A stretch of DNA of 64,000 bases, taken from the NCBI GenBank assembly GCA_030390025.1, contig CM059431.1, positions 95,792,001-95,856,000 of the forward strand, in the 5' to 3' direction. Below the pieces are notes generated by a model. That model did not search any database and had not been told where the DNA came from. It worked only from the letters and a program-made list of their open reading frames with translations. Below, piece after piece: positions 10,699-50,300 of the stretch. Both the position numbers and the translations under genes were made by a program. The stretch comes from Squalus acanthias. Taxonomy: Eukaryota. Numbering within the stretch: position 1 is the first letter of the stretch; each line of letters begins with the position of its first letter.

Positions 10699-11646
10699 AT
10701 TATGGCCAGACGGAGGAGGGCCAACAGGCCTCAGTACAGGAGACCTTACCCTCCCAGGGTATTTCGCCAACAATTCTCAAACATTAATATGTCTGAGGAG
10801 CAGTGTTTGCAAGGCTGCGCTTCAGCAAGGAGGTGGTCACTGAGCTCTGCCACCTGTTGCAGCCAGATCTGCAGCCTCTACTGAGGACCAGGACGTCTCT
10901 GTCGGTGGCAGTGAAGGTCACAGTGGCTCTCAACTTTTATGCCACCGGCTCATTTCAATCAGCTACTGGGGACATCGCCAATATCTCCCAGTTCACGGTC
11001 CATTGCTGCATCCGTCAGGTCACAAATGCCCTCTATAAAAGGAGTACATCTCTTTCCCCATGACCCCGGCCAAGCAGCATGAACGGGCTTTGCGAGGATA
11101 GCGGGCTTCCCCATGCTGCAGGGCGCCATTGACTGCACGCATGAGAATGCAGAGGATTTCTGCAACCGAAAGGGGTTCCATTCCCTAAAAGTGCAGTTGG
11201 TCTGTGACCACAGACAGCTGATACTCGCTGTCAATGCCCGCTATCCTGGCAGCATCCACAATGCATACATCCTGCGCCAGACTACTGTGGCAGAACTTTT
11301 CCAGGCACCGCATCACCCAGGTGGTTGGCTTCTCGGGGACAAGGGATATGCACTGTGCACCTGGCTGATGACACCGCTCTATACGCCCAACACCCCTGCT
11401 GAGCTGTGGTACAACGAGAGCCATCTAGCTACCAGGAACATCGTTGAGCACACAATCGGCGTGCTCAAGCAACGGTTCCGCTGTCTGGACCATTCTAGAG
11501 GAGCCCTGCAGTACTCGCCTGAGCAAGTCTCCCTCTTCGTTGTGTGCTGCATGCTGCATAACCTGGCAATCCTCAGGACCCAGCCAATGCCACCAGGCCT
11601 TGGAGCACCACCAGAGGAAGAAGAGGAGGAGGATGATCATCAGTAG
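10699..11646 (+). pseudogene. Harbinger (HARBI1-like) DDE transposase, frameshifted
   Basis: RLRFSKE..., ALNFYATGSFQ, GAIDCTH, NRKGFHS, LLGDKGY, RNIVEHTIGVLKQRFRCL. Confidence 0.9.
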
Positions 11647-23918: not shown

Positions 23919-25990
23919 TTATTGTCGCATTGTTGCCAAGACGACACTATGATGTTCAGTAACACAGAGAAGGTAAGGTGGGGAACTGTTGGTGAATGGG
24001 GAATTGGGGTTTCGGTCACTGGTACCGCAGTCAAATGAGTCAACCACAGACAGCCCAGCCAAAAGGGGCTGTGTTGGTTGCCTCCTCCCTTCCTCCTCCT
24101 CCTTCTCTTCCTCCTCCTCCTTCTCTTCCTCCTCCTCCTCAGCTCTTTGTTGTGTCCGTGGTGACAAGGGCTGTGCCCTCAAGATGGGGAGGTTGTGCAG
24201 CATGCAGCAGACCACGACGAAACTTGAGACGTGCTCTGGTGAGTACTGCAGGGCTCCTTCAGAGCAGTCCAGGCAGCAGAAGCATTGTTTAAGCACGCCA
24301 ATGGTCTGCTCTATCAGAATCCGTGTGGCAGCATGGCTTTCATTATATGCATGCTGCCCACGTGTGCATCAGTTGCACACCAGAGTCATGGGCCACGTGA
24401 TTAGCAGATGGCCCTTGTCGCCCAGTAGCCATCCTCTGGTTTGTCGCGGTGGCTCAAATGCGGATGGTACAGCGGACTGCCTCAGAATGAAGTCATCATG
24501 ACTGCTGCCAGGATACTGAGCAATGGCTTGCATGATGCGCTGAGTATGGTCACATACCAGCTGGACATTGCAGGAGTGGAATCCCTTCCGGTTGCGGTAC
24601 ATCTCCGAATTCACATATGGCACCTGCAAAGCGATATGCGTACCATCAATGGCACTCTGCACCATGGGGAAGCCTGCTATCCTGGCTAAGCCATGTGCTC
24701 ACTCCACCTGCTTCTCTCTGGCAAGAGCAAATGAAATGTGTTCACCTCTCTTTACATCCAGAGCCTCAGTGACCTCCCTTATGCAACAGTGCACGGCAAA
24801 CTGGGACATGTTGGAAATATTGCCTGCTCCAGGCTGGAAGGAGCCCTATGCATAAACATTCATGGCCACGCTCACCTTCACAGCCACTGGCAATGCCATC
24901 CTTGCCCTGCTCTGAGGCTGCAACAGGTGGCAGATTTCAGTGAGCACCTCTTTAGTGAAGCGGAGACATCACATACAGTGGGCTGGATTTTGTCTTGGGG
25001 TCGGGTTGGGGTCGTGTCATCTGCATTTCGTGTTTCCCCCCCGACTCCAGTTGAATGTGGAAGAATGATGCAATTTTCACTTAATTGGTCAATTGAGTTT
25101 GAGCATGTGGGAACCCATGAACTAATTAGTGGTTTCAGTCTGAAAGTCGCCTCTGATGATGTCATCATTGCTGACTGCCTAGTCTGAGAGACTGTTGGTG
25201 AGAGAGGACCTGCCTGCCTTGCTTTTGATTTGAGTGGACCTGGATGCAAGATGTGGGGGGAAGAAAGGAAGCAGAGAGAGAGAGAGAGAGAGACAGAGCG
25301 AGAGAGAGAGAGAGAGAGAGAGACTCGCACCAAATGCCACGCAGTCTCTGAACACATTCAATGCAGCAGCATCACACGCGACTTTCACACCACCTAATAC
25401 TACTACTACCTTCATCACATCTCTGTTGTAACAGTGGACCTGCAGCTGATAGTCAGCTATCCACTTGTGCTCCCGCCAGGTTTCACTGGAGTGATTCACA
25501 CCAGGCGTGCTTCACATCAGAAAAGGGTTAAACTAGCTGAAACGTTTTAAAATCGCATCACAGTGCCAATTTAGAGCTTGTTAAGGGCTTTAATGGCCTC
25601 TCCTGCCTCTTGGAGGCGGGACGGAGTCGGGAACCCTGCGACTGATTTTGTCAAAATTGCATGGAGGTGGAATGGAGTCGGGATGGGGTCGGGACCCCCA
25701 ACCACGCAAATTTAACCCCCCACACGCCTCCAAACCCGACTCCATGGGTCATTCAAAATCCAGCCCACTGTTTCTCGCTGAGGTTGAGGTAGGAGAATTG
25801 CTCCCTGAAGACCCTGGGTGGATATGGCCTCCTGCTGAGAGCCCTTCTCCCCCTCCTCCTGCTCCCTCTTCCAGCAGCTTGTCTTCCTCTGTGTGGCCTC
25901 TGCTCATTCTCCTTGTCATGCTGCAGGCCAAGGGTGATACAAACTACTGCACCCAAGTCTGGGAGCCAGTAGTCTGAGCAGAAGCCTTGA
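23919..25990 (-). pseudogene. Harbinger DDE transposase remnant, interrupted by a MITE
   Basis: SAIDGTH, NRKGFHS, YPGSSHD, WLLGDKG, VCCMLHN followed by an acidic run. Confidence 0.85.
24980..25766 (+). mobile_element. Harbinger-type MITE, family M1 (internal GA microsatellite)
   Basis: TIR gggctggatttt/aaaatccagccc; 3-bp TSD (agt/act); homologous to 31714-32474 and 54488-55242. Confidence 0.88.
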
Positions 25991-35159: not shown

Positions 35160-35326
35160 TGTAGAATCTTACAGCACAGAAGGAGGCCATTTGACCCATC
35201 ATGCTTGTGCCGGCTCTTTGAAAGAGCTATCGAATTAGTCCCACTCCCCTACTCTTTCCCCATAGCCCTACAATTTTCTCCCCTTCAAGTATTTATCCAA
35301 TTTCCTTGTGACAGTTACTATTGAAT
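35160..35326 (-). mobile_element. CR1 3' tail fragment
   Basis: Reverse complement of atgggtcaaatggcctccttctgtgctgtaagattcta. Confidence 0.7.
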
Positions 35327-35598: not shown

Positions 35599-37616
35599 AT
35601 GGCCTTGATGCTGAATCAGCTATCGCCTGTTACTGAGAATGATGAACAGACTTCCTCCCAAAGGAAGAAGAGATCACTAACCAATTGGGTAGTGGTAGGA
35701 GTGGTGTTTAATAGCTTAGACATTGAAAATCAATACTATGATCAAGCTAGATTAATAACACAATTGAAGAAATTATTAACTGAAGAAAATAAAAGAGAGA
35801 AGAGGTTGATGGAAAGCATCTTATCATTTAAAGAGATAATGGGGTAATGAATTTAACTAAGAATAAGATAAACAAGATAATTAACAACAAAAATATCATA
35901 TCCTCTAATGGCCTGTAGTTTGTATGTGTCCTATTGGGAAGGCATGATAGATGAAGGGTTAAAAGATATGTTTGAAGGGAATTTACCCAATTCGATCCCT
36001 GAGTAATTACAAAAGTAGGTACCAGAAGATTTTGGGCTGTATTTTCCGATCCCTACGGGTGTGTACAAGCTGTGTACGCACCCATAGGGACCTCGAAACT
36101 GCGAAGTGCATGCGCTGAAAACCGACACTTCCGATCTGTCAAGAATGCTCTTGACAGATCGGACGCCTGCCCTGGAGAAGGGCCTCTGCAGGTGGAGAGT
36201 TCCGCTTTCTGCAGAACCTCCGCCCGCTGAAATCCCTTAAAAATCTTACGCCTGGTAAAAGCAGGCGTAAGGCCTGCTTTTGCCAGCATAAGAATTTTAA
36301 AAAGTAGAAAAATATTTTTTTTTCCACTCATTTATAATTTTAAAATACTTTTAAAAAAGGTAAGTTTATTTTTAGCCCCGTAAAAAACATGATTTAAAAA
36401 AAGAATTATTTAATGTTTTAATGTGTTTTTTCAGTGATCTCCATTCATACTTTTGACAGGTCTAAGCTGTCAAAAGTATGAAGGGGGATTCCCATCTCCC
36501 ATTGGCTCCCCATGGCCCACGTGATCCCAGGGACGCTTGCGAACCGCATGTGCCCCTGGGATACCTGGGCCCTGCGCATTTTGTAGAGCAGAGGCCCAGG
36601 ATTGGAAATGGCCGGACCTCTGGAGCCCTCGGGTAAGGGCGTAGATTTTTTCCAGATTGGAGGCCTCCGCACGCAGGAAGCCTCCGATCGGAAAATACGG
36701 GCAAATGTCTGTTTAGTAAGAAGTTTCGCTCAAACCCATGTAATGGAGGTATCGTGTAATTGCACATCAAAACCAGGTATTAGTGGGGTCCTATTCAAAA
36801 TACCCAGGTTTGAGACAAGTGAAGGGGCAAAACTTTATAAAATTGAATCGATTGGGCAGGTAGAAAATGGAAACCTAAAAGAATATATGAGCCCTCCAGG
36901 ATATCTAACAAAGGGGGACAGATGGAATGCGATAGATTTAAGTTTGTGCAGATGCAGGGGAGACAGGTGGGCATGCGAGTATAATGTCACTTGAAACCAA
37001 GCTTGTGGATACACTCTAGAAGATGAGTCGCCTTTGTGTGATATACAGATAACATCATAATGGATGAACATAGCCTATAATGGAAAGGGAGAATATTGTT
37101 TTACCACCTCAGAAAACGACTTCTATCATGGGGGAAAGAGGTGCGCACTGACACAAGGGTGTATCAGGCCAACACAAGTTACAAATAGGAGGGCAGTACG
37201 AATTCCTAATAAGAGGACATAACATTATGACTATACAACTACATGGCGACTTACAGAAAGAAGCATTGGAAGTAATTGCTAAGTTTGGGCACCCCATACC
37301 ATCATTAACTTTTAGTTTATACTCCATTCTCCAATGAGGGGTTACATCACAAAAACATCTGGTAAAAATATATCAGGATAATAAAGATATCGAGAAAGGT
37401 ACTAGAGTGTTGCGAGATCACTCATGATGGCAGACCGCATACAATGCTGGTCAATCACCAAGGGTGCGATTAATGTCAAACGCTTTTGTTATTATCCAGA
37501 TGATAATGATGTGTGGTCTGTTTGTGCTAATATGCATAAAACGGAGGGTGATTAAACGTATGCAAAAGAAAGCGGATCATCTAGAGTTAGCTCAATTACT
37601 AACAGAAAGAAAGTGA
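35599..37616 (+). pseudogene. Endogenous viral class I fusion glycoprotein (Env TM/F1-like; spuma-like or lokiretrovirus-like), disrupted
   Basis: RKKR furin site at 35662-35673 then SLTNWVVVGVVFNSLDIE; helical heptad region; frame stays continuous when MITE 36034-36703 is removed (VPEDF-NVCLVRSF); Cys-rich domain; TM AFVIIQMIMMCGLFVLICI at 37482-37538; KRRVIKRMQKK tail; stop at 37614-37616; several internal stops and frameshifts. Confidence 0.78.
36034..36703. mobile_element. Harbinger-type MITE inserted in the env-like gene
   Basis: TIR gggctgtattttccgatc / gatcggaaaatacgggca; AT-rich centre. Confidence 0.8.
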
Positions 37617-38910: not shown

Positions 38911-39859
38911 GGGCCAAAAATTGCAATCGGCTACGTACCTCCGGAGTACACTGGCGAGCTGTGAAAAGAATACGCACCTACCTGATGGCGGCCCTCCTGT
39001 GTAAACTTGCGGTCTGATGCTGCGAGTAGGAGGGCAGCGTAATGGCCCACGGATCTCAGGGAGCATACCTGGGATCACGTGGTCCTGGTCCTCCAATCAG
39101 AAAACAGAATTAGATTTTACATCAGGTCAGAAGGGAATCCCATAATCAGATTTAATGCAATCCCATAATCAGATTTAATGCAATCCCATTATCAGATTTA
39201 ATGCAATCCCATAATCAGATTTAATGCAATCCCATTATCAGATTTAATGCAATCCCATTATCAGATTTAATGCAATCCCATTATCAGATTTAATGCAATC
39301 CCATTATCAGATTTAATGCAATCCCATAATCAGATTTAATGCAATCCCATTATCAGATATAATGCAATCCCATTATCAGATTTAATTACAATTTACAGAA
39401 TTGGAATTTAATTCGTAATCAGCTTCATTCCACCAACTTCATGAAAAATTTAATTTTGCTGATAATTTTGTTGACATCATTAAAACTCTAATATTTGCAG
39501 AAACAAGAAAAACTCATTTGATACAGTTAAACAATATGATTTACAAGATGAAAATGTTTAAAACATGCCTGAGGTATCCCCTTACGCTGATGCAAACAGG
39601 CCCTGTGTCTGTTTGCATCAACCGTATTCATTTCCGTACGCAATTTCTGGGCAGTTGGTGGGCAAATAGCCCAAGTCTGTGCCAGCAATTGTTTTTTTGT
39701 GGGCCGTGCGGAAAGCCTGTCAACGCATAAATTGACAGACCGCAAGATTGGGATTTAGCGCATACGTGTGCAGAAATCCCGTACTTGCAGTGGATTTCAA
39801 AGGAGGTATGACGGCGTACTCTGAGAGTAGTCCGCCATACCCACCGCAAAATCTGGGCC
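38911..39859. mobile_element. Harbinger-type MITE carrying a minisatellite
   Basis: Imperfect TIR gggccaaaaattgc / gcaaaatctgggcc; AAT TSD. Confidence 0.75.
39136..39386. repeat. 23-bp minisatellite, about 11 copies
   Basis: Unit AATCCCAT(A/T)ATCAGATTTAATGC, head-to-tail, no spacers. Confidence 0.97.
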
Positions 39860-41609: not shown

Positions 41610-43560
41610 ACCGTCATACCTTTTAATGTAGTTTCCCAATCTACCTTAGCCAACTCGTCCCTCATACCTATGTAGTTTGCTTTGTTTAGATTTAAGACCC
41701 CAGTTTTGGATTTAACTAAATCACTTTCAAACTCAATATAAAAATCTATCATATTATGGTCACTCTTCCCTAAGGGCCCCTTTACTACAAGGTTATTAAT
41801 AACCCTTTCTCATTGCGCAATACTAGATCTAAAATAATCTGTTCCCTTGTTGGTTCCTCAACATACTGATCGAGAAAACTATCTTGTGTACATTCCAAGA
41901 ATTCGTCCTCCACACTATTACTGCAATTTGGTTTGCCCAGTCAGTATGTAGATTGAAGTCCCCCATGATTACTATATTACCCTTGTTACATGTGTCTCTA
42001 ATTTCCTGATTTATACTCTGCCCTACATTACAACTACTGTTTAGGGGCCTATAAACAACTCCAACCTACTGCCCCTTGCTGTTTCTTAGCTCCACCCAAA
42101 CTGATTCTACAACTTGATTTTAGGAGCTAAGATCCTTTCCCTCTACTGTCTTTATCCCATTCTTTATTATCAGGGCTACCCCTACTCCTTTTCCATTTTG
42201 TCAATCTCTTCTAAATGTTAAGTATCCTGGAATATTTAGTTCCCAACCTTGGCCACTTTGCAACCATGTCTCTGTAATGGCCATTAGATCAAACGTATTA
42301 ATTTCTATCTGCACTATTAATTCATCTATTTTGTTGCGAATACTTCGTGCATTCAGATATAGTGCCTTTAGCTTTGACTTATTTCTATTTTTCCCTGATG
42401 TCACCTTAGTCACTGATGCCTTATTACCTTTGTTACTCTCTCTGTCCCTTCCTGACCCACTCTGCTTATTTTTACCCAAAACTCTACTCTGCTCTAGAGC
42501 TTGACATTTCTCTCGCTGCTTTTAAATTTACTCATTCCTGAATCCTCCCGCACCCGCCCCTGCTCCCCCCTTCATTAGTTTAAAGCCCTCTCTACTGCCC
42601 TAGTTATTCGGTTCACCAGGACAATGGTCCCAGCCCAGTTTAAGTGGAGCCCGTTCCAACGGAACAGCTCCCTCTTTCCTCAGTACTGGTGCCAGTGCCC
42701 CATGAACTGAAACCCCTTCCTCCTACACCACTCTTTGAGCCACGCATTTAAACCTCTAATTTGTTTGTCCCTATGCCAATTTGCACGTGGCTCAGGTAAC
42801 AACGAGGTTCTGCTTTTCAATTTGGATCCTAGCTCCTCAAACTCCCTCAGCAGAACCTCATTCCTAGTTCTACCTATGTCGTTGGTTCCTACTTGGACCA
42901 CGACAACTGGATCTTCCCTCTCCCACTCCAAGTTCTTCTCCAGCCGCGAGGAGATATTCTTAACCCTGCCACCGGGCAGGCAACACAGCTTTCGGTGCTC
43001 CCTGTCGCGGCTGCAGTGAACAGTATCTATCCTCCTGACTATACTGTTCCCTACTACTACCGCATTCCTTCCTTTTCCCCCCACTTGGATGGCCTCCTGT
43101 ACCATGGTGCCGTGGTCAGTTCGCCCATCCTCCCTGCAGTCCTTGTTCTCACCCATACAGGCAGCAAGTACATCATACCTGTTGGACAAGGTCAAGGGCT
43201 GAGGCTCCTCCATCACTACATCCTGGGTCCCCATACCTTCCTGACTCGCAGTCACACCCTTCTGTCCCTGACCATTGACTAACTGTAAAGTACTGCTCAA
43301 CCTAAGGGGTGTGACTGCCTCCTGGAACAAAGTGTCCAGGTAACTCTCCCCTTCCCTGATGCATCGCAATGTCTGCAGCTCGGACTCCAGTTCAAGAACT
43401 CTGAGCTGAAGTTCCTCGAACTGCAGGCACTTACCACAGATGTGGTTGCTTGGGATCTCATTGGTCTCCACCAACTCCCACATGCAGCAGTTACGACACA
43501 CCACCTGCACTGCCATCTCTAGCTAACCTTATTTTATTTATATAATTAGTTACAGTATTT
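41610..43560 (-). mobile_element. CR1 5' portion: ORF1 (zinc finger, leucine zipper, SGNH esterase; 42680-43516) and start of EN
   Basis: CRNCCMWE...CGKC, VVGNSIVR, CCLPG, VGTND; ORF2 YLNARSIRNK...AITETWL. Confidence 0.88.
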
Positions 43561-47380: not shown

Positions 47381-50300
47381 TAAGTGCCTGCATCTTGAGG
47401 AACTTCAGCTCAGAGTTTTTGAGCTGGAGTCTGAGGTGCAGACATTGTGTGACATCAGGGATGGGGAGTGTTACCTGGACACTTTGATCCAGGAGGCAGT
47501 CACACCCTTTAGGTTAGGTAATGGTACAGGTCTGGTTAGCGGTCAGGGACAGGAGGGTGTGACAGCAACTCGGGCAGGTAAGGGGACCCCAGGTGCAGTG
47601 CTGGAGGAGCCTCAGCCTTTGCCCTTGTCCAACAGGTATGAGGTTCTTGCTGCCTGTGTGGATGAGGGAAAAGCCTGCAGGATGGATGAGCAAGCTGACC
47701 ATGGCACCATGGTGCAGGAGGTCATTCAAGTGGGGGGTGTGAAAGGGAATGTAGTTGTGGTAGGGGATAGTATAGTCACGGGGATAGATACTGTTCTTTG
47801 CAGCCGCGACAGAGAGTTCCGAAGGTTCTGTTGCCTGCCAGGCTTAAAGACATCTCGCAGCTGGAGAAGAACTTGCAGTGGGAGGGGAAGGATCCAGTTG
47901 TCGTGGTCCATGTAGGAACCAACGACATAGGTAGAACTAGGAATGAGGTTCTGCTGAGGGAGTTTGAGGAGCTAGGATCCAAATTAAAAAGCAGAACCTC
48001 AAAGGTAATAATCTTTGGATTGTTACCTGAGCCACACGCAAATTGGCATAGGGACAAACAGATTAGAGGTTTAAATGCATGGCTCAAAGTGTGGTGTGGG
48101 AGGAAGGGGTTTCAATTCATGGGGCACTGGCACCAGTACTGGGGAAAGAGGGAGCTGTTCCATTGGGACGGGCTCCACTTAAACTGGGCTGGGACCAGTG
48201 TCCTGTCGAACCGAATAACTGGGGCAGTAGAGAGGGCTTTAAACTAATGAAGGGGGTGATGGGGAGGATTCAGGAAAGAGTAAATTTAAAAGCAGCGAGA
48301 GAAATGTCAAGGATCTAGAACAGAGTAGAGTTTTGGGTAAAAATAAGAAGAGTGGGTCAGGATGGGACAGAGAGAGTAACAAAGGTAATAAGGCATCAGT
48401 GACTAATGTGAAATCAGGCAAAAATAGAAATAAGTCAAAGCTAAAGGCACTATATCTGAATGTGCGAAGCATTCACAACAAAATAGATGAATTAATAGCG
48501 CAGATAGAAATCAACAGGTTTGATCTAATAGCCATAACGGAGACGTGGCCAAGGTTGGGAACTAAATATTCAGGATACTTAACTTTTAGAGGAGATTGGC
48601 AAAATGGAAAAGGATAAGGGCTAGCCCGGATAAGAAAGGATGGGATAAAGACAGTAGAGAGAAAGGGTCTTAGATCCGAAAATCAAGAAGTAGAATCGGT
48701 TTGGGTGGAGCTAAGAAACAGCAAGGGGCAGAAACCACTGGTTGGAGTTGTTTATAGGCCCCCAAACTGTAGTTGTAATGTAGGGCAGAGTATAAATCAG
48801 GAAATTAGAGGCGCATGTAACAAGGGTAATACAGTAATCATGAGCGACTTTAATCTACATGTAGACTGGGTAAACCAAATTTGCAGTAATAGTGTGGAGG
48901 ACGAATTTGTGGAATATATGCAAGGTAGTTTTCTAGATCAGTATGTTGAGGAACTAACTAGGGAACAGCATATTTTAGATCTAGTATTGTGCAATGAGAA
49001 AGGGTTAATCATAACCTTGTAGTAAAGGGTTTTTTAGGGAAGAGTGACCATAATATGACAGAATTTTATATTGTGTTTGAAAGTGATTTAGTTAAATCCG
49101 AAACTAGGGTCTTAAATCTAATCAAAGCAAACTACGTAGGTATGAGGGGCGAGTTGGCTAAGGTAGATTTGAAAACTACATTAAAAGGTAAGATGGTAGA
49201 CAAGCAATGGCTAGGATTTTGAAGAATTAATACATAATTTACAACAAATATACATTCCTTTAAGGCACAAAAACCCCACAGGAAAAGTGGTCCAACCATT
49301 GTTAATAAGAGAAGTTAAAGATAGTATTAGATCAAAGGAAGAGGCTTATAATGTTGCCAAAAAGAGTAGTAAGACTGAGGATTGGGAGGATTTTAGAATT
49401 CAGCAAAGGAGGACCAAGAAATTGATAAAGAAAGGGAAAATAGAATACGATAGTAAACTAGCTAGAGACATAAAAACAGACTGTAAAAGCTTCTATAGGT
49501 AAGTAAAAAGGCAAAGATTAGCGAAAGTAAATGTGGGTCCCTTACAGGCTGAGACAGGAGAAATTATAATGGGGAATAAGGAAATGGCAGAGAAATTAAA
49601 CAAATACTTTGTGTCTGTCTTCACAGAAGAAGACACAAAAAACTTCCCGGAAATAGTAGAGGACCAAGGATCTAGCGAGAATGAGGAACTGAAAGAAATT
49701 AGTATTAGTAAAAAAATAGTACTGGAGAAATTAATGGGACTGAAAGCCAATAAATCCCCTAGACCTGATAGCCTCTATCCTAGGGTTTTGAAAGAGGTGG
49801 CTACAGAGATAGTGGATGTATTGGGTTGTCATTTTCCAAAATTCCATAGATTCTAGAATGGTACCCGCGGATTGGAAGGTAGCAAATGTAATCCCCACTA
49901 ATTAAGAAAGGAGAGAGAGAGAAAATGGGGAACTATAGACCAGTTAGCCTGACATCAGGAGTAGGGAAAATGCCAGAATCTATTATTAAGGACGTGGTAA
50001 CAGGGCACTTAGAAAATAATAATAGGATTAGGCAGAGTCAACATGGATTTATGAAAGAGAAATCGTGTTTGAAAAATCTGTTGGAATTTTTTGAGGTTGT
50101 AACTAGCAGAATAGATAAGGGGGAACCATTGGATGTGATGTACAGGTTGAGCATCCAAAATCCGGAGTTCCGGAATCCAGAATTTTCCGGAATCCGGACT
50201 CCGGGACGATTGGTGGCAGGGTCGTCCAGAATCCGTAAAATGTTCCGGAATCCGGACACCCTGTCAAACCGTTTCCGCCGCCAGCCAGGCCCAGTGAAAA

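Follow-up and report, generated by a model that had tools for sequence, protein, structure and literature searches.

A stretch of 64,000 nucleotides from Squalus acanthias (assembly GCA_030390025.1, contig CM059431.1, positions 95,792,001 to 95,856,000 of the forward strand; hereafter, the window) contains, at positions 35599-37616, a dead copy of an envelope-type gene whose 5′ end is lost. Significant collinear similarity over the fusion subunit confirms, at the sequence level, the membership of this copy in a family of shark and frog glycoproteins, which is undescribed in the literature searched. In our judgement, the copy is probably a fossil F-type (class Ib-like) env of that family, most likely carried into the germ line by a retrovirus-like element of which it was the env. 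The window copy itself is inert, and the interest lies in the family, in a possible link among the Envs of lokiretroviruses, foamy viruses and walleye viruses, and in the intact copies carried by other sharks.

The decayed locus

An earlier note on this DNA had proposed that a series of fragmented plus-strand open reading frames (ORFs) hides a fossil gene for a class I fusion glycoprotein of viral type, a proposal that the collinear homology and the architecture described below support. The peptides that it quoted are present exactly in the ORF list and in a three-frame view. In that view, the stop-to-stop ORFs 35599-35847, 35881-36006, 36587-36994, 37061-37222, 37152-37337 and 37428-37616 yield fragments of 41-135 amino acids. 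A furin-type RKKR, encoded at 35662-35673, is followed by SLTNWVVVGVVF, and close to the end of the last ORF lies the anchor-like stretch AFVIIQMIMMCGLFVLICI, with a Kyte-Doolittle mean of 2.77 over 19 residues. From RKKR to the stop that closes the reading frame there are about 419 codons, once a 684-bp insertion is subtracted, which agrees with the post-cleavage subunit of some 420 codons predicted earlier. Neither reading nor a regular-expression search finds a CC dipeptide in the env pieces of the window, and therefore the CX6CC motif is absent from them, as had also been claimed.

The reading frame shifts at about 35842-35844, 35892 and 37178 and also across the insertion, so that at least three frameshifts have to be bridged, where about three had been expected. 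Six in-frame stops are listed with the other features in Table 1. Given these frameshifts and stops, the 684-bp insertion and the missing 5′ end, no working protein can come from the window copy. The N-terminal part of the intact relatives, about 260 amino acids, was not found upstream of 35599 with tblastn or with a hidden Markov model (HMM) of the N-terminal subunit. The DNA at about 35171-35305, upstream of the fossil, is a repeat with two further occurrences in the window. The env-like DNA has the depth of its unique flanks (12-44, summed contig depth in DNA run X5).

The insertion had been described as a miniature inverted-repeat transposable element (MITE) at 36034-36703. An inverted-repeat, high-copy element is indeed present, and its measured bounds, 36027-36710, are close to those proposed and slightly wider. 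Its arms (36027-36051 and 36686-36710) are 25 nt long and 80% complementary, with a perfect core of 13 nt readable within them. The summed contig depth over 35996-36778 in run X5 is 51,000-835,000, far above that of the env-like flanks, and the insertion is therefore a very-high-copy repeat; the element is at very high copy in the host and in two other organisms. Inverted repeats, small size and high copy number are as in MITEs, and a GGGC on both sides is a possible target-site duplication. Neither the insertion nor its surroundings match a tRNA or an Rfam entry, and the window has no second copy of the insertion.

Low-coverage runs X6, X7 and X8, from two other organisms, contain pieces of the env fossil of 157-158 nt with one or two differences (within 36803-37211); these are therefore probably the same decayed locus in close relatives of the host. 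A further env piece of 165 nt comes from a run guessed to be RNA and does not establish transcription. Just past the env stop, the segment 37649-37900 has a depth of 76-293, compared with about 17 on env; it is moderately repeated and possibly LTR-like (long terminal repeat), with no match in the window.

A family of shark and frog glycoproteins

The 175-codon piece at 36695-37219, with its two stops as X, was used as a phmmer query against 1.84 billion representative proteins. Ten proteins were recovered at E ≤ 1e-3, the best at 2.8e-16. Nine are from vertebrates, and the tenth, a bacterial RCC1-repeat protein, was set aside as a false match. With the best of these matches, the protein P0004 of the shark Chiloscyllium punctatum, as a query, tblastn finds three collinear pieces in the window (summed E 8e-49), the last of which has 45% identity over 131 residues. 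A family HMM finds five collinear pieces with E from 5.5e-13 to 6e-5 and three weaker ones, all in order, and the read-through of the window, with X at the breaks, matches P0004 with 36% identity across 412 aligned positions. The fragments are short and were bridged by eye, as would be expected if a chance run of ORFs in A-rich repeat DNA had been over-read for motifs. Such an explanation has a vanishingly small probability, and a chance arrangement is in fact refuted by the phmmer, tblastn and HMM matches, which are collinear and lead to proteins of other species.

A tree of the Env proteins, a check suggested in the earlier note, was built by maximum likelihood. The window copy falls within a clade, recovered with a support of 100/100, of the P0004 group and the frog proteins, on an own branch of 0.87; the midpoint root is for drawing only. 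The family divides into two clades, whose homology is clear (hhalign 99.7%, E 3.3e-26, 335 columns). Word-indexed protein searches with the window fragment gave no longer relatives, and those with P0004 and with the alignment gave P0004 and P0014 alone.

Among the proteins searched, the family has a patchy host range, with relatives only in sharks (Chiloscyllium, Scyliorhinus, Heterodontus, Mustelus and Pristiophorus) and in frogs (Xenopus and Pelodytes), in keeping with the chondrichthyan setting guessed beforehand. The long shark members are P0004 (739 amino acids), P0014 of Scyliorhinus torazame and P0017 of Heterodontus francisci (754 each), and P0012 of Mustelus asterias (673). Shorter ones are P0007 and P0010 of Pristiophorus japonicus (312 and 323), P0009 and P0011 of C. 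punctatum (211 and 311) and P0016 of C. plagiosum (317). The frog members are P0006 of Pelodytes ibericus (723) and P0005 and P0015 of Xenopus tropicalis (438 and 519). A single genome can contain several diverged lineages, as does that of C. punctatum, with P0004, P0009 and P0011. Because of these diverged lineages, the patchy hosts and the decay of the window copy, a mobile or viral origin is indicated.

The members are type I membrane glycoproteins of about 720-750 amino acids, with a common order of elements. The N-terminal subunit, which contains a module weakly similar to Ig-V, ends in R-x-K/R-R. A hydrophobic peptide comes next and leads into an extended helical region of heptads and a beta core rich in Cys, after which a second helix, close to the membrane, precedes the transmembrane anchor and a short tail. 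The cleavage site with its hydrophobic stretch, as in class I fusion glycoproteins, is found in P0004, P0014, P0017, P0006 and P0012, as it is in the window. In P0004, a heptad repeat A (HRA) would follow the fusion peptide and a heptad repeat B (HRB) would lie beside the anchor (helices 277-391 and 631-667, anchor 681-721); the helices are those of a model with low predicted local distance difference test (pLDDT) values, and the anchors were found by hydropathy. The fusion subunit extends for about 420-460 residues past the cleavage site. The members have in common a Gly/Ala-rich post-cleavage peptide, one Cys that follows the first helical region, the invariant cysteines C503, C512, C524-G525 and C558 (P0004 numbering), G.G.YC, the motifs PIPPL and WWD, and the C-terminal anchor. 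The window copy has Cys in 8 of the 10 Cys columns common to P0004 and P0006 that its read-through covers. CX6CC is missing from the window pieces and from P0004, P0014, P0006, P0012 and P0015. A reading of the fossil as a gamma-type Env was rejected, given that it has neither CX6CC nor the immunosuppressive domain.

In searches of PDB sequences, residues 106-231 of P0006 gave 50 weak matches, all to antibody heavy-chain variable (VH) domains, the best with E 0.0049. Residues 68-145 of P0004 likewise gave weak VH matches (E 0.054-0.85). Pfam Ig_2 and Ig_3 score 0.13-0.14. These similarities suggest that the N-terminal subunit may carry an Ig-V-like module ahead of an F-like core. P0006 has, in addition, an N-terminal membrane segment (25-43) and, after it, REKR (59-62), a second convertase site that the shark members do not have.

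Table 1. Positions of the parts of the env fossil and of other elements in the window.
Feature	Positions	Strand	Basis or remark
End of N-terminal (surface or F2-like) subunit, last ~25 codons including RKKR	35599..35673	+	homology starts near 35623; tblastn P0004 259-340 against 35623-35841; HMM piece E 4.4e-6
Fusion-peptide-like hydrophobic stretch SLTNWVVVGVVFNSL, right after the cleavage site	35674..35718	+	aligns with Gly/Ala-rich post-cleavage peptides of P0004, P0006, P0012
HRA-like helical region; frame 1 to frame 0 near 35842-35844	35719..35891	+	aligns with P0004 293-360; helical in P0004 model (277-391), low confidence
Post-HRA segment with conserved Cys (MACSLY...) and DL.E..[IL]P motif; frame change near 35892; stops 36004, 36016	35893..36026	+	weak collinear HMM piece, hmm 133-162
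MITE-like inserted non-coding element with terminal inverted repeats	36027..36710	.	inverted arms and depth
Beta-rich, Cys-rich core of fusion subunit (LYKIESIG, C..C...CG, GKGEYC); stops 36992, 37058	36710..37177	+	phmmer E 2.8e-16; tblastn P0004 443-586; HMM 5.5e-13, 2.5e-8
Membrane-proximal part: distal beta domain, PIPSL motif, HRB-like helix; frame change near 37178; stops 37335, 37425	37179..37481	+	45% identity to P0004 588-718 over 131 aa; HMM 1.1e-6, 6e-5
C-terminal transmembrane anchor AFVIIQMIMMCGLFVLICI	37482..37538	+	hydropathy; aligns with P0004 and P0006 anchors
Short basic cytoplasmic tail and natural stop 37614-37616	37539..37616	+	ORF list
Harbinger/PIF-type transposase ORF (DDE_Tnp_4)	11083-11646	+	E 5.6e-33
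Harbinger/PIF-type transposase ORF (DDE_Tnp_4)	23919-24368	-	E 4.3e-12
GDSL-lipase-like ORF beside LINE endonuclease/reverse transcriptase ORFs	42680-43522	-	esterase-type ORF1 of non-LTR retrotransposon
GDSL-lipase-like ORF beside LINE endonuclease/reverse transcriptase ORFs	47771-48247	+	esterase-type ORF1 of non-LTR retrotransposon

Fold class, carrier and rival origins

With moderate confidence, we place the fold of the family in the class of paramyxovirus and pneumovirus F, baculovirus F, lokiretrovirus Env and foamy virus Env ("class Ib") rather than with gamma-type Env, since independent lines of evidence agree and the hit lists are uniform among 350,542 PDB chains. The first line comes from language-model features (ESM Atlas). 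For P0004 residues 183-686, the Baculo_F and Fusion_gly clusters score 0.92 (200 of 256 features), 0.92 (202) and 0.91 (195). The best clusters carrying either name score 0.92, 0.92, 0.91 and 0.90 and have 195-203 of the 256 features in common with the query; the ten best matches are all of one family or clan, and hemagglutinin and coronavirus S2 rank lower.

The second line is the predicted structure. P0004 was modelled with AlphaFold2 from an alignment of 11 rows. Its model has strands at 199-218 and a helix at 231-253 before the cleavage site, helices at 277-391, a beta-rich part at 425-607, a helix at 631-667 and the anchor. The same order of secondary-structure elements is found in F proteins. 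In searches of the models with Foldseek and VIA-align, the PDB matches listed are all paramyxovirus or pneumovirus F or foamy virus Env. For the P0004 model, Foldseek gives 29 PDB matches at E ≤ 1e-3, 39 of the 39 rows listed belong to these proteins, and the best is F of human parainfluenza virus 3 (6e-5). The TM-scores of the fold matches do not exceed 0.26. Among the viral models of BFVD, P0004 has 24 matches at E ≤ 1e-3. Env of walleye dermal sarcoma virus (WDSV; 1e-9) and Env of walleye epidermal hyperplasia virus 1 (WEHV-1; 3.3e-7) stand at the head, and mononegavirus glycoproteins, parainfluenza virus 3 F0 (1.1e-6), baculovirus F (1.7e-6) and feline foamy Env (2.4e-5) are also present. 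The model of the frog protein P0015 has 36 such matches, to mononegavirus glycoproteins, F0, baculovirus F and foamy Env (ranks 34 and 40); WEHV-1 is at rank 37 (E 1e-3), and WDSV is absent among the 50 best rows.

The third line is a comparison with lokiretrovirus Env (Loki-Xtr, Loki-Pma and Loki-Str; supplement of Wang and Han 2020, PMC7947760; what is said here of published work refers to the parts of each source available to us). Five collinear motifs are common to both: P.P..G[ILV] in the N-terminal subunit; the cleavage site with its Gly/Ala-rich peptide; NRIPSYLV, compared with NRIPAFVK; LP[VL]V...[YF]R[LV]..[NS][VI]G; and C-x8/9-C-x11/13-CG[FLI]-x8/9-C. A fourth line is the architecture of the proteins as a whole.

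Several results weigh against an F-type env of retroviral descent. Among shuffled proteins, 4-10% attain an ESM score of 0.9. Both AlphaFold models are poor, with a mean pLDDT of 45.6 (P0004) and 47.7 (P0015) and a predicted TM-score of 0.32 and 0.25, and models of low confidence can yield meaningless fold matches. The motifs in common with lokiretroviruses were recognised by eye alone. At E ≤ 10, no viral envelope family of Pfam (PF00523, PF03408, PF12259) matches any of 11 members or the window pieces, and searches of PDB sequences with the family profile and with P0001, P0004, P0006 and P0012 singly gave no fusion protein, just the weak VH-like matches. Scans of viral contigs and metagenomes found no relative. 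The window has none of the signs of a retroviral carrier that were looked for, namely, rve, RNase H, gag, an LTR pair or a primer-binding site. In addition, the sole chondrichthyan row in the available part of the lokiretrovirus screen (PMC7947760), Orectolobiformes, is positive in 0 of 3 genomes. The earlier description of the fossil as F-type or foamy-like thus holds in moderate form: the language-model features, the fold searches with their low-confidence models and the lokiretrovirus motifs favour it, but the expected Pfam families were not matched. The check by profile and structure that had been recommended divides in the same way: sequence profiles detect no fusion protein in Pfam or PDB, and the PDB fold lists, from low-confidence models, consist of F-type proteins and foamy Env.

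For intact members, the class would imply a trimeric precursor that is cut by a host proprotein convertase and kept metastable. On triggering, the fusion peptide would enter the target membrane, and HRA and HRB would fold back as a helical bundle so that the membranes merge. Entry into the germ line would have been as the env of a retrovirus-like element, whose gag-pol and LTRs would since have been lost or would lie outside the window. A Pfam search of 54 window ORFs shows only reverse transcriptase and endonuclease of long interspersed nuclear elements (LINEs), GDSL, Harbinger, zf-CCHC and zf-RVT, in line with the earlier statement that no gag-pol is in view; no long LTR-like direct repeats occur in the part of the window from 26 to 48 kb, and the downstream flank of the fossil has no second copy in it.

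Because the window is without gag, pol and LTR, the lineage of the carrier is left unplaced among three candidates. A loki-like carrier is suggested by the common motifs and by the presence of Loki-Xtr in X. tropicalis, and is opposed by the fact that P0015 is a different protein and by the screen of Orectolobiformes. A foamy-like candidate is suggested by the odd pair of hosts, sharks and frogs, which recurs among foamy-like elements, and by the foamy-like N-terminal segment and REKR of P0006. According to Aiewsakun and Katzourakis (PMC5512871), the foamy-like endogenous retrovirus (ERV) of X. tropicalis clusters with shark foamy-like ERVs, pol being the sole gene detected in either host in the part of that work consulted, and fish foamy-like env genes are described as having no detectable homology to known genes (PMC10699275, in part). 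A WDSV-like candidate has the best BFVD match in its favour, but in one of the two models only.

There is also a route by which gag-pol would never have been present, that is, as a non-retroviral endogenous viral element: the mRNA of an F gene, from a paramyxo-, lispi- or arli-like virus with a negative-strand RNA genome, would have been copied into the germ line by LINE machinery. Such an origin would suit the abundance of LINEs in the window (RVT_1 and Exo_endo_phos), its lack of gag, pol and LTR, the depth of the env-like DNA, which is at the level of the unique flanks, and the many BFVD matches to mononegavirus glycoproteins and F0. We nevertheless regard it as unlikely. No poly(A) run was found past the env stop, and the deeply diverged lineages within the same shark genomes are better explained by a proliferating or repeatedly invading retroelement. 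The best BFVD matches of the shark model are the retroviral Envs of WDSV and WEHV-1, and the motifs common with lokiretrovirus Env, recognised by eye, point the same way. In the portion of a survey of vertebrate endogenous viral elements that was available (PMC11521997), those of paramyxoviruses are of the RNA-dependent RNA polymerase and N only, in teleosts only.

The intact shark relatives raise a further question. P0004, P0014 and P0017, from Orectolobiformes, Carcharhiniformes and Heterodontiformes, are 85-88% identical without internal gaps. The share of variable sites is lowest in the HRB and membrane-proximal part, at 4.8%, and highest in the cytoplasmic tail, where it is 60.6% (chi2 60.6, df 10, p 3e-9). 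This uneven spread indicates selection on the protein, in a virus or after its capture as a host gene. One could hold, accordingly, that the proteins of 739-754 amino acids are Ig-like membrane proteins of the host, that the fossil is a decayed paralogue of a cellular shark gene, and that the viral likeness reflects ancient co-option or convergence. The gap-free conservation, the uneven constraint, the annotation as host proteins (one as "Ig-like domain-containing") and the weak VH-like matches of the N-terminal part would fit. Such an origin is nonetheless quite improbable: close full-length relatives were found in three species only (two 90% clusters among 8000 scored candidates), the family is patchy across sharks and frogs, with 9 true matches among the 1.84 billion representatives, and both the architecture and every fold lead point to a viral fusogen. 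It also nests within the origin as a fossil F-type env, because the gene would itself be a captured env. The restriction to three species speaks, in addition, against simple old orthology of the intact copies, as does the slightly closer relation of Scyliorhinus to Heterodontus than to Chiloscyllium.

It is tempting to go further and to propose that the intact copies are orthologues of one F-type env captured before the three galeomorph orders split and held under purifying selection, and that the family is also the unrecognised env of the foamy-like or WDSV-like retroviruses of sharks and frogs. We consider this combined scenario doubtful. If true, it would be a "syncytin-like" co-option of non-gamma type, far older than the known ones, and would tie the Envs of foamy viruses, lokiretroviruses and epsilonretroviruses to a single F-type ancestor.

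Besides the elements in Table 1, the window has a tandem array at 39136-39386 (23-bp unit, 10.9 copies, 96% matches) and many further LINE reverse transcriptase fragments throughout.

Comparison with known envelope systems

The F-type env genes described so far in vertebrate genomes are those of lokiretroviruses and, by structure, of foamy viruses. The fossil points to a further sequence family of this fold class, in sharks and frogs, that is invisible to Pfam. It offers a probe for the env genes that screens based on pol report as not detected, such as those of the shark and frog foamy-like ERVs, and it flags the intact, strongly conserved copies in three shark orders as candidates for domestication. 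The fold matches also suggest that the odd Env of the walleye epsilonretroviruses may be in the same class.

Furin-cleaved class I envelope genes endogenised in cartilaginous fishes have been described as "syncytin-like" (Proudley et al. 2026 preprint), a resemblance that the family bears in this respect. In the available part of that preprint, all the candidates have the immunosuppressive domain and CX6CC, and the neighbouring pol genes are epsilon-like. The shark and frog family has neither motif and has a longer fusion subunit than gamma-type Env, and identity with those genes was therefore rejected: the preprint, as far as it was available, deals with a different, gamma-type family.

The exogenous fish epsilonretroviruses provide the best BFVD match of the shark model, that of WDSV extending over 789 columns, from a low-confidence model; the Envs of WDSV and WEHV, with 1159-1317 amino acids, are longer than those of the family. 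The two entries concerned, A4GTG3 and Q9WHI8 (WDSV and WEHV-1 Env), are the top viral fold matches of this model and stand there among F-type proteins. These Envs have been described as distinct and without gamma-type hallmarks (Hogan and Johnson, PMC9967133, as far as available), and amphibians and a chimaera, the elephant shark, are known to carry epsilon-like ERVs (PMC4422223, likewise). The modelled fold hints that the distinct Envs of WDSV and WEHV may themselves be F-type. The literature searched contains no description of WDSV Env as F-like, nor of an F-type env in cartilaginous fishes.

The F proteins of paramyxoviruses and pneumoviruses and of baculoviruses and errantiviruses (PF00523, PF12259) are the nearest named language-model clusters, and they fill the PDB and BFVD lists. 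The order of elements in paramyxovirus, pneumovirus and baculovirus F is that of the family, that is, an F2-like strand and helix, cleavage, fusion peptide, HRA, Cys-rich beta domains, HRB and anchor. However, there is no match by sequence profile, the N-terminal subunit of the family is much longer, and the family sits in vertebrate genomes, whereas these F proteins belong to RNA viruses or insect elements.

Foamy virus Env, the "class Ib" of Fernandez et al. 2024 (PMC11468914), likewise has a fusion subunit of more than 400 amino acids on an F-like core, and the membrane segment and REKR of the frog protein P0006 recall the leader peptide of foamy viruses, which has a furin site to itself (for the foamy features, see the same source). 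The shark members, in contrast, have no second furin site and no clear first membrane segment. Foamy Env is longer (981 amino acids in the feline foamy BFVD entry, compared with about 740 in the family), its receptor-binding domain alone comprises residues 225-555 (PMC11468914), and no family member matches PF03408. The extra module of the family is N-terminal, whereas in foamy Env it is inserted before the furin site.

Lokiretrovirus Env (PMC7947760) resembles the family in its R-x-K-R, its Gly/Ala-rich hydrophobic peptide, its long coiled coil, its C-terminal anchor and the lack of CX6CC, and, according to the supplement, endogenous copies occur in lower vertebrates, including X. tropicalis. 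The F-type env of lokiretroviruses is reported there from lampreys to reptiles, no cartilaginous fish being named in the part available. In lokiretroviruses, env is situated 3′ of gag-pol between LTRs, none of which the window shows. Loki Env matches PF00523 at 2.2e-7, whereas members of the family give no match at E ≤ 10. P0015 of X. tropicalis is not the Loki-Xtr Env, three of its motifs being missing from the supplement as available. Finally, Loki Env has about 585 amino acids, with an N-terminal subunit of about 115, to which the shark and frog family adds 150-180 N-terminal residues and extra cysteines in the G.G.YC region.

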